Below, piece after piece: positions 30,743 to 64,000 of a stretch of DNA of 64,000 bases (the first letter of the stretch is position 1; every line of letters starts with the position of its first letter). Position numbers and translations under genes: made by a program. Origin of the DNA: Eledone cirrhosa (lineage: Eukaryota); the NCBI GenBank assembly GCA_964016885.1, contig OZ024745.1:40796001-40860000 (forward strand), read 5' to 3'. The notes below the pieces were generated by a model. The model made no database searches and was not told where the DNA came from. It was given only the letters and a program-made list of their open reading frames with translations.

Positions 30743-30925
30743 GGTTGTGAATTGGCAGTATCGGTAGAGAGTCGCACGCCATGCTTTCCAGCATAGTTAC
30801 GTCCCTTTACGGTCTGAGTTCAAATTCCGCCGCGGTTCACTTTGCCTGTCATATTACGGGGTCGATAAAATTGACTGCCAGTAATGTACTGTGTAATTGC
30901 TGGCCTTGTACCAACAGTAGAAACA
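30743..30925 (+). mobile_element. tRNA-derived SINE with 19-bp TSD
   Basis: SINE consensus motifs; TSD GTTATTGTAAGGGAAATAT at 30724-30742 and 30926-30944. Confidence 0.92.
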
Positions 30926-30947
30926 GTTATTGTAAGGGAAATATATG

Positions 30948-30999
<52 letters not shown>

Positions 31000-31001
<2 letters not shown>

Positions 31002-31190
31002 GAAAGAGAGATATATTTTAATTTTAATTATATCTCATATAAAATAATACAACTGGCTTTCCACAAAATACATATAGTTAGCACCCGAAACACAAAATTG
31101 GGATTATACTTACGTATATCCTAATGTTTGTTGAGTGAGATGGTTACCAGTCAGAGTTTAGCTTAAAGCTTCCTCTGTTATTGTATTAAA
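31000..31190 (+). mobile_element. Family B copy lacking the HHR, starting at the predicted cleavage site
   Basis: Homologous to 48104-48292. Confidence 0.75.
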
Positions 31191-31734
31191 TATATATATA
31201 TATATATATATATTCCCCTTACACTAATTTTTATTGTTTTATATTGTTTACAATTTACACACATATATAAATAATTCAGTATATTAATACAATCATTTTA
31301 ATAGAGACCGTTTTTTTCCCCTGCAAACGTAAAATCCTTCTCCGGATATTTTCACCGGATGATTGCTTCTTAAAGACATATAAATATATATTATAATAAA
31401 TTAATTACTCTTAAGAACCCATCTACATATATATGTTATAATTAAATGCCTTTACGCACATGTTTAAATGCTGCTTAATTTGTTTTAATTTTAATTTAAT
31501 CGCAAGCATATTTTAATCAATAATTTTAATTGCATACATCTACTTTTGACATGCAACTACGCGTAAACATTTCTGAATGGATTAATTACTATATTCTCCT
31601 TCAGTGCATCCATTCTGCATAAAACGTTCTCTATCCTTTTAAGGAACGTTTTGTAATAGTGATGTTTCGGTTGTTTCGGCATCCAATACAAACTTAGATT
31701 TTTAAATATTTTCTGCATATATATATATATATAT

Positions 31735-60601: not shown

Positions 60602-61853
60602 AATATTGCTGCTGTATTGGAGATTTCACTGAAGCATGGTATATTAATAGAAACAATAAATCCAAAGCCTAAATCCCAGTTTCAGTGAAATAATATACGT
60701 GCTTGGTCTGCAAAAATAAACTATTTTCTGAAGTATAAATGCAAATTAAACATATAAAGGGAAACATGGAATTATGAAAATATCGTGAATATGCAACTGA
60801 TTTCTATAATTCAGCAACTATCTGGTGACAAACGTGTAGAATGATCCACGGTGTATTTGATGATGTCTTTAATTAAACTGTCATATACTATTAGATACTT
60901 AGTTTAGAAAAAAAATTTAATGTATATTTTGTTAATTTAAAAATGGGAAGAATTCACTCGGGAATTGCATACGAGATATGAATATTAACTAAGGTTGAGA
61001 ATTATTTTATATCAAATCTAAAGAATTAAGTAAAATAATTCTATACAAATAAAAACATTATTAGATTGATGTGTATGAGAAATTTTACTCAGAGCCTAAC
61101 AAATGGCTTAAAGTTGAATAATTTTAATTTAGCTTAATTTTATATATATATATAAAATATTTTTATTTTCCTTGTGAAATAGCTAATTGCTTTTCTCATG
61201 AAATTATAGTGATCTAATGTAACTTTGACAAATTGCGGAATACCAAACAATTCATTGCCAGCAGATTATATTTCAATAGATTGCATCGACGATGTGATGG
61301 CAGGGTATTGGACATTTTAAACTAAAGGATTGACAGTATCTATTTCTTACCAACCATGGGCTCAATGTATCAAGAATGAAATCATTTACACACTTTTTCT
61401 TTTTCTCCCTCCATTTATATATATATATACACACACACACATCCATGCGCTCACACATATGTGTGTGTTTGTGTGTGTGAGCCTGTGTGTGGATGGGGTG
61501 GGTGCAATGTTATCCTTCATATGCATTTGGGTTTACAAACTGAGAGATTTTACAGTCAGAATGGTCTTAATGGACTGCAGTCCGTTTGTATTTATTTTTA
61601 ATACACCGAGAATAAGTGACCAAATGATTAACAGCAATTTTGGACACTATATTTAATTTGTTTCGTTATTTTCATGTCGGTGTTCCCTTTTCTGTGGGGC
61701 CCAATAGAAGGATGGACTAACCCTCACAGTAATTTCCAAACATTGCCATGTCATTATTATATCCACCGTTAATGTTATCCTTAAATTTCTAATTGACATA
61801 CTTCCACATCCAATCCAACACCAACATCATTAGTAAGTGTTAGTCCATTATAA

Positions 61854-62000
61854 AGGGCGCGTGGCTTAGTGGGCAATGTGCGGCGCACACTACTGTAAGG
61901 TTATAGAATTTGATTCCCAGATCTAGCGGCAAGTTTTTGTCCTTGAACAAGACATTTTATTTTGCGTTGCCCCAATCCACTCAGCTAGATAAAATTAGTT
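61854..62000 (+). mobile_element. Second SINE family (tRNA head, CORE-like central segment)
   Basis: GTGGCTTAGTGG A-box, TTTGATTCC B-box-like, tgtccttgaacaagacatttta, ccactcagct. Confidence 0.6.
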
Positions 62001-63454
62001 GCGACGACACTGGCATCAGAGTCAGGAGAGGCAACTGCTGGTGTTCACAATGCATGAATCAATCTTGTTCTTCTTGAGTCCTCAATCGAAGGTGAAACAT
62101 TTATTGTGATTTCTCTAATGGATAGAATATATGTGGCTCACCAAACCTGCATACCCACAGTTTTCTCCACTAACTAAAGCAGTTGTGCAAAGACATTGTC
62201 GAATAAATAGTCGACCAACTGCGAGGCCACTGGTGTTCAAGACGCTTGGTCTATATCATTAAACTGATGATCATCGCCTGAGCTACTGCTTTCTATGAGA
62301 CAATTAGGGTTATTTTGAAACTTACTTATCTAGATCCGACCGGTTCTGCTGGACTAGCATATGATAGCCATATCAGAGGCACCTCGTGTAGAATAAAGCT
62401 TTTCAGTACGCGGATTGGTCAGAGAGAGGCTATCTGCTCAGATTGAATGAGCATATATTGCGCGACATCAGTTCGCTGAGTGACATGTAGAACAGACACT
62501 GTGACACACAGGGAGGCCACAAAGACCACCAAGTGCTAACCAGTTAAATCTACTACAGCTCAGAACATATACATATTAATTTAATGTGTACCCACACGAT
62601 ATATACATATGTACACACAATTGGATGGCTATTGATTCCCATAATTTACTCCCTCATTTCTCAAGTTTTGTTTTTCATATATCAAGGTGTCCAAGCAAAT
62701 ATAGTGGGATTTCCGGTTTAGTCGCCGACGAGCCAAACATGTGACAGACTGTACTGGGTTGCATGTTGCCAGTAGAACTCAAGAATGACCTGACATGGTT
62801 CACAATCCACGGCTAGTCATAACCGATGGGTTTCTTACCTTTCCTTCCACCATTGATTTTCAGTTTCAGATCAACGTCTCCGGTGCAATTACTGGCTACA
62901 TAAGTGTATATTTATGTAAATATATAATCCGTTTCACATCCGTTCAAGGAAAGAGGAAATGAAGATTTCGATTGATCTTTCCAATGCTGGCAGTATCTAC
63001 CGGTCTCAACTATTGGCACAAATGTCACCGTTTTTTCCAATGTCAGGAGAGGTGATTTGAAATCAGGATGCATAGAGATGGAACAGATATCGCAAATATT
63101 TCAATCTCACCAGCTCCAGCAATGCCTGGCCCTGGACTGCTACTAAATATATGGAATGTGGGATTAGAACTAAGAGAACGGTTGTAGAAAAACGCCATTC
63201 TAACGAGTCTCTCAATTCAGTGTAACTACATCCAAACCCACATGCAAAAGCAAGCGTGAAGACGAATTGTTGCTTCATACAGATATTTCTCTCTTCATAT
63301 ATTTACAGTGCATAAGGAAAACAAAATTTTAAATGTTTGAATAAAAATAGTTTACATAAACCAGCATCTCATGATAATAGATCGTCTTTCAGAATAAATA
63401 CCATATGCATAACTCTTAACTACATAAACATTTCCATTGAAAAGGTAATCAAAC

Positions 63455-63531
63455 TTTTAAAATGTTTTGTTTTTAAATATCCATGTCATAAATAATATAA
63501 CATGGATATTTAAAAACAAAACATTTTAAAA
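63455..63531. repeat. Perfect 31-bp-arm hairpin
   Basis: TTTTAAAATGTTTTGTTTTTAAATATCCATG...CATGGATATTTAAAAACAAAACATTTTAAAA. Confidence 0.85.
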
Positions 63532-64000
63532 TATGTATCTACAAATGAAGATGACATTTTTATACCGTTATATAAGGCACGGATGTGGTAGTACGCATAG
63601 CTCTATATTTTCTCAATGCCTCCGAGACTGCTGGGAGGAAGAGAGAATATAATTGTACCAAACATCAGATCAGAATATTTGCAACTAAATGTACCCAATA
63701 ACGAGAGGAGGACTTTAAACCGAATTGACGATTTAAGTATACCAGCCAAGAATTGAAAACACCATAAAAATATCGCAACACCACTAGTAGGATACCATGA
63801 TAATTCCGCTATTCCACCACCTTCATTTGGGACTTATTTCATCGACACCGAAATAATGAATTTCAAGTTCGCCGTCGGCTGCATTTGACTTTAGGGCTCG
63901 GAGAATCGTTTGTTTATTTTGGAAAGGAAATTTGGTATTAGCATTTAGCAGGAGTTTTAAAAGATAGTTTGTTCCTCATCCTTCTTGTCAGTAATACTGT

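Follow-up and report, generated by a model that had tools for sequence, protein, structure and literature searches.

Insertion 5' ends pile up from the predicted hammerhead cleavage site in a Penelope-like repeat family of Eledone cirrhosa

A short repeat fragment in the genome of Eledone cirrhosa starts next to the predicted self-cleavage site of a hammerhead ribozyme carried by its relatives, which raises the question of whether such a start records ribozyme activity in vivo. We address this question at the locus itself, within a window of 64,000 nucleotides (contig OZ024745.1 of assembly GCA_964016885.1, forward-strand positions 40,796,001 to 40,860,000), and across genomic insertions of the same repeat, family B. 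Element coordinates are counted from offset 0, the first base 3' of the predicted cut. The features concerned, in window positions, are:

31000..31187, plus strand: 5'-truncated family B copy, subfamily B2, offsets 0 to about +185, 97.5% identical to natural unit L256
30941..31001, no strand: 5' junction, a (TA)n run continued by (TG)n whose final TG is shared with the element, which leaves the junction anywhere from -4 to +2
31189..31213, no strand: (TA)n at the fixed 3' end, the probable target site
47985..48107, plus strand: predicted type I hammerhead with helix I TCCA/TGGA, core CTGATGA at 47989-47995, helix II with a three-way junction, GAAAC, palindromic helix III and GTC^ cut at 48103/48104
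47980..48009, plus strand: GGGC at 47980-47983 and GCCC at 48006-48009, candidate partners in a loop 1-loop 2 pseudoknot or an alternative hairpin
47586..48701, plus strand: family B, subfamily B1, in partial tandem; the first piece spans -523..+185, and the second unit has lost an internal stretch, with -571..-224 running straight into +113..+185
7616..7941, minus strand: family B copy, older and more divergent, whose predicted hammerhead is complete, with CCCA/TGGG as helix I and the cut at 7794/7793

The fragment, 188 bp long, is a stub of a non-coding repeat of ~745 bp and is inserted within (TA)n. T31000 opens TGGAAAGAGAGATAT and abuts the (TA)n(TG)n run, just as the first-pass annotation had described an island starting directly after a microsatellite. 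Of the hammerhead, the stub keeps helix I's 3' strand and none of the core; the downstream sequence follows, and its 3' terminus at 31187 is the family's fixed 3' end at about +185, with (TA)n flanks on both sides. A blast alignment places its start at -4 and the exact match runs from 0; because of the TG repeat, the junction is placeable only to -4..+2, which bears out the annotation's caution that the leading TG might belong to (TG)n. Just upstream lies a repeat at 30760-30930 whose ends recur as 5' flanks of other family B insertions (L190, L215, L342, L405); we take it to be SINE-like, resembling octopus SINEs. Inverted repeats accompany the minus-strand copy at 8148-8198, 8593-8710 and 7975-8090.

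The annotation had also matched the stub to the sequence 3' of GTC in the hammerhead-bearing copies. That match holds, with GTC^TGG at 48103/48104 (plus strand) and at 7794/7793 (minus strand), but the stub's own subfamily is predicted to cut after GUU. The stub is ~81% identical to the copy at 48k and 97-98% identical to 39 other best genome matches, which are B2, and B2 relatives with an intact ribozyme read GAAAC-AATT-GTT^TGGAAAG; the triplet relevant to the stub is therefore GUU, not GUC. GUU cleaves more slowly than GUC. The accessible portion of PMC3138052 gives GUU as a cleavable triplet and says no more of it.

Family B has the anatomy of a Penelope-like element (PLE): partial tandems, a fixed 3' end, 5' truncation and an AT-rich or microsatellite target. 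Its natural tandem units measure 716-772 bp (about 745) and are arranged head to tail; a 995-bp variant carries a 250-bp internal duplication. All copies share the single 3' end at about +185, their 5' ends vary, and coding capacity is absent (longest stop-free frame 61-83 aa in the four units examined). Among 260 sampled insertions, 240 carry a TA run no more than 20 nt from the 3' anchor, 181 have a TA-rich 5' flank and 45 are longer than one unit. Partial tandems, a fixed 3' end and variable 5' ends are described as the anatomy of PLEs and their non-autonomous derivatives in the available text of PMC8557442. We also observed a B2 lineage whose unit has grown from 745 bp to 993-997 bp through duplication of its first ~250 nt (L252, L157, L174, L269, L275, L278), as well as inverted 5'-truncated copies abutting the 5' end of another copy (L213/L214 at G000:C1:13.078 Mb; L391), an arrangement known from PLE insertions.

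A search for an autonomous PLE partner (reverse transcriptase, RT, plus GIY-YIG) yielded no divergent ORF-linked relative in 527 loci and the window. Three ORFs neighbouring family B copies had no Pfam match; judging by motifs, we presume that they resemble PLE proteins. Other elements, whose ORFs end in a C-terminal CxLC and which also have short hammerhead-like motifs, share microsatellites with family B (L023:600-1130; flanks of L374, L253, L420, L275 and L366), and these, too, we take by their motifs to resemble autonomous PLEs. Within the window, stop-free frames of 680 and 352 aa at about 60800-63900 on the minus strand carry what we assume to be LINE-type RT motifs.

Structural analysis of the repeat supports a hammerhead in family B. 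Across 16 diverse natural copies, which were picked by core pattern, are related and supplied the sequences from which the structure was drawn, a type I fold whose helix II contains a three-way junction leaves 94.6% of cells paired, against 36-42% in slid controls, and 12 of its 36 pairs show two-sided change. Helices I, II and III are present with an open helix I, and helix III stays palindromic throughout by way of compensatory changes (GGCC, GATC, AATT); palindromic helices III are reported for dimer-acting PLE hammerheads in the portion of PMC4209133 available. Conservation was assessed separately on 131 copies chosen by their 3' end only: none of 11 core columns has a minor allele above 5%, against 39% of 147 other columns (Fisher p 0.007), and position 17 reads T in 76, C in 48, A in 7 and G in 0, so that the core CUGANGA...GAAA...UH is kept. 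The catalytic core is thus fixed across subfamilies. At the base of helix II the 10.1-11.1 pair is G-C in six of the 16 rows, A-U in four, G-U in one and unpaired in five, and B2 has U.U there; an axolotl hammerhead variant with U.U at this place still cleaves, according to the accessible part of PMC7229834.

Pairing of GGGC with GCCC (alignment columns 24-27 with 50-53) is possible in 14-16 of the 16 rows per pair and shows no compensatory change; it may represent a pseudoknot between loops 1 and 2, or else an alternative hairpin that would inactivate the ribozyme. The minimum free energy (MFE) fold of B2 is not the hammerhead, and there the same pairing appears as a competing hairpin. An Rfam scan of the window returned no hammerhead family among the 150 of 165 matches listed at E <= 1, probably because of the long helix II insert. 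The miRNA matches in that scan were set aside as microsatellite-driven and below gathering scores. Long near-perfect fold-backs at 51155-51288 and 53579-53761 fell below threshold against plant miRNA models in Rfam, and a tRNA-like match at 52562-52617 (36.3 bits) exceeded its gathering score.

The stub taken alone is within chance; the family-wide distribution of 5' ends is beyond it. To survey that distribution we used three exact 27-mers as 3' anchors, which have 287, 403 and 1,037 matches in the 3.0-Gb genome (at least 1,727). The first 100 matches per anchor by position were taken as 90 loci plus 180 of 191 merged regions, the last 11 regions, all B3, being left out. Once pieces had been chained over internal deletions, these 288 anchors, chosen by their 3' end only, gave 260 separate 5' junctions. 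Alignments served to curate by hand the ends lying no more than 50 nt from the cut, and samples biased by similarity to the query were kept out of the histogram. The window borders at -3, +10 and +21 were set after the data had been seen.

After curation, 25 of the 260 ends fall at -3..+10, 28 at +11..+21, 8 at -45..-4 and 39 at +22..+150; about one insertion in five (53/260) thus starts at -3..+21. The uncurated automatic ends of the same insertions give 46 at 0..+19, 8 at -20..-1 and 11 at +20..+39. The upstream edge of the excess is best placed at -3 or -2, and all top-ranked sliding 14-nt windows overlap the cut site. Among first-lap cDNAs that reach +21, 44 of 229 stop by -3, and among cDNAs on a second lap through a tandem, 9 of 27 stop there. 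The first-pass annotation had called for such a histogram in the expectation of a peak at the cleavage site. The distribution is far from uniform, but it has no sharp peak: its mode lies at +11 (14 insertions), and only 3 of 260 ends fall at 0/-1. The pile-up is instead a one-sided plateau that starts at the cut, and ~80% of cDNAs read through.

Could such a plateau arise from ordinary 5' truncation, through (TA)n microhomology, microsatellite erosion or a few short master copies, with the stub starting where it does by chance? Elsewhere in the unit the truncation rate does climb with TA-likeness, from 1.1 to 32 per 1000, and the mode at +11 coincides with an ATATAT patch. Adjusted for TA content, however, 4.9 ends are expected at -3..+10 against 25 observed (p 1e-10), and 8.8 at +11..+21 against 28 (p 2e-7); the best 14-nt window away from the cut holds 12 against 3.8 expected (p about 1e-3). 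We rejected a model of microhomology only, since the purine-rich stretch -3..+10 lies fivefold above its TA-adjusted expectation. A source in a few short masters was likewise unsupported, as short copies form no clade: their nearest-neighbour share is 0.23 against 0.19 when shuffled (p 0.28; 206 of 260 copies), and a tree, read with no shuffle control, needs 37 label changes for 41 short copies. The excess is moreover present in all three subfamilies (B1, B2, B3). At the family level ordinary truncation is largely refuted, and as a general explanation we consider it improbable.

Genome-wide junction lists resolve the edge more finely. A complete list of B2/B3 junctions with TATATA within 9 nt of the sequence from +1, counted by eye, contains 37 loci: 1 at +1, 17 at 0, 1 at -1, 7 at -2, 2 at -5, 8 at -6 and 1 at -9. 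The 17 at exactly 0 include the 31000 stub and one probable duplicate pair. Eighteen junctions lie at 0/+1 against 19 over -9..-1 (p 2e-5), and position -2, where the 1-nt overlap is identical, is outnumbered by position 0 (p 0.03). Eighteen junctions nonetheless lie 2-9 nt past the cut, ten of them by 5-6 nt; these ten at -5/-6 must derive from uncut or re-ligated RNA, because cleaved RNA cannot template them. A rough scaling to the sample gives the past-cut junctions a frequency close to that seen generally, ~2 per 1000 per nt. A second complete list of 49 loci, also counted by eye, has 5 at 0, 37 at +2..+8, 4 at +9 and 3 ambiguous. From the two sets of counts, position 0 is the edge of a plateau and not its summit; two further lists agree qualitatively in the matches listed (100 of 214 and 100 of 315). 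Three loci carry a short stretch in duplicate, the internal stop lying at 0, +3 and +8 (L508, L428, L450), and a comparable local duplication occurs away from the cut, at -113 (L259).

An uncut RNA could leave a closely similar edge. The RT might stall or drop off on entering the folded ribozyme from its 3' side, at distal helix I', helix I, a tertiary contact or a bound protein, and because helix I ends at the scissile bond this predicts nearly the same boundary as cleavage. The bulk of the ends fall at +3..+20, where the RT would be at helix I or still short of it, and there are junctions past the cut. The excess is also independent of the triplet and of the helix II base pair: stop rates per 1000 are 8.3 in B1, 6.1 in B2 and 10.7 in B3, and stops at -3..+10 number 9 events in the GUC/G-C subfamily and 16 in the GUU/U.U-rich ones, at equal rates (p 1.0). 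PLE insertion proceeds in vitro with unprocessed RNA, as the available text of PMC11167929 describes. Against stalling, helix I has only 4 bp, while the longer, stable and covarying hairpins inside the ribozyme (helix II and its two arms) gather few ends (2, 2 and 4); junctions favour exactly 0 over the equally overlapping -2; and it is the catalytic core that is kept, not merely the fold. We regard stalling as the main competitor of cleavage, though the less likely of the two.

A further possibility is that an internal promoter starts transcription near 0..+10, so that the pile-up is a natural RNA 5' end unrelated to cleavage. This would give a one-sided edge, and PLE transcription start sites have been placed in the pseudo-LTR (pLTR) in the accessible portion of PMC8557442. 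In a 745-nt unit, however, the start would have to fall by coincidence to about 3 nt or less from the scissile bond, and both the second-lap stops and the read-through require long precursors. We judge this very improbable.

We propose that the pile-up is run-off from hammerhead-cleaved RNA combined with imprecise joining, a reading that we hold at slightly better than even confidence; on the sequence evidence, cleavage in vivo appears the likeliest cause. A PLE RT/endonuclease supplied in trans would nick (TA)n and prime at +185. The upstream hammerhead of the template would be cut, probably as a dimer through palindromic helix III, and cDNA made on a cut template would end after about 185 nt. 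Joining to the target may then drop 0-20 nt, favouring the TA-like patch at +11. The cDNAs that pass the cut would imply that most templates are uncleaved there, or re-ligated into circles.

Run-off is supported because the pile-up begins at the cut, exceeds microhomology and recurs on the second lap, and because the core is fixed, the helices covary and internal hairpins collect few ends. It is weakened because the peak is not sharp, about half of the 37 junctions lie past the cut, and the stop rate is the same across triplets although GUU is the slower one to cleave, and also because the B2 MFE fold is not the hammerhead and ribozyme mutants of PAc inserted normally. PAc, according to the accessible part of PMC11167929, is the only PLE tested in vitro; its hammerhead mutants inserted normally, its reverse transcription starts internally, downstream of the hammerhead, and no RNA-seq reads starting at the cut appear in that part of the paper. 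For R2, the cut position of the ribozyme has been read from genomic 5' junctions (PMC3774820, available portion), and ribozyme-cut templates without target homology gave insertions that were often slightly 5'-truncated, mostly within 50 nt (PMC11331408, available portion).

For the stub itself, the annotation's reading as the cDNA of a 3' cleavage product is strengthened by the family, whose 5' ends pile up from the cut, and tempered by the read-through, by ends lying mostly 3-20 nt downstream, by the past-cut junctions and by a ribozyme of its own lineage with GUU and U.U. That this particular copy is a run-off product of cleaved RNA seems to us a little short of an even bet; a start set by chance or ordinary truncation is less likely, though plausible for this one copy.

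The role of the hammerhead in PLEs is called unclear in the available text of PMC8557442, and the sole biochemical study found the ribozyme dispensable for insertion (PMC11167929, in its accessible part). What has so far been missing is an in vivo trace of this kind, a pile-up of 5' ends across the family that starts at the predicted cut. The split between about 20% that stop and 80% that pass bears on the circular-template model set out in the portion of PMC4209133 at hand. More speculatively, and with clearly less than even confidence, the genome may hold a fossil read-out of hammerhead cleavage in Penelope-type retrotransposition, in which about one fifth of templates are cut per site and yield 185-bp ribozyme-less dead stubs, uncut or re-ligated circular templates yield tandem, propagating copies, and drift has left the active subfamilies with weaker ribozymes (GUU, U.U), which would keep the loss low. 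On that reading, histograms of 5' ends could serve generally, for PLEs and retrozymes alike, as an in silico assay of ribozyme activity in vivo. The element class is known and a single copy proves little.

Type I hammerhead repeats tied to PLEs are already known from the accessible portions of PMC7229834 and of Li, Clavereau and Pollet 2026 (10.64898/2026.07.22.740005). In the texts available, our literature search brought up no histogram of 5' ends compiled genome-wide for the hammerhead of a PLE or a retrozyme, and subscription papers and supplements may hold one; in the available text of an O. vulgaris repeat paper (PMC13282606) the word 'ribozyme' does not occur.

Family B resembles the animal non-LTR (type I HHR) retrozymes, as the available part of PMC7229834 (Cervera and de la Pena 2020) presents them, in having AT-rich units that lack coding sequence, lie head to tail and bear one type I hammerhead each. 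It shares with them a short palindromic helix III and the proposed mobilisation by PLEs, according to the same part and that of the 2026 study, and the B2 U.U at the helix II base recurs in axolotl HHR_Amex2 (PMC7229834, same part). It differs in a unit of about 745 bp against about 300, in occurring mostly as dispersed 5'-truncated singles and partial dimers and not as long arrays, and in a helix II that carries a ~90-nt three-way junction.

With PLE pLTR hammerheads and Anolis Poseidon PAc, as covered in the accessible portions of PMC4209133, PMC11167929 and PMC8557442, family B shares a fixed internal 3' end downstream of the hammerhead, variable 5' ends, partial tandems, AT-rich or microsatellite targets, a short helix I and a palindromic helix III. 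Unlike these elements, its unit has neither an ORF nor a clear 30-40-nt tail, and its 5' ends pile up at the cut, where the RNA-seq data in the available text of PMC11167929 give no ends for PAc.

The third comparison is with the HDV-like ribozyme of R2, for which the available portions of PMC3774820 and PMC11331408 describe a cut that fixes the template's 5' end and is visible in genomic 5' junctions; there, too, junctions vary, and microhomology is used when target homology is gone (PMC11331408, same portion). Cleavage in R2 defines the full-length element, as those portions have it, whereas most family B cDNAs pass the cut. In family B no more than 185 nt separate the cut from the RT start downstream of it, so that cleavage would give ribozyme-less stubs.
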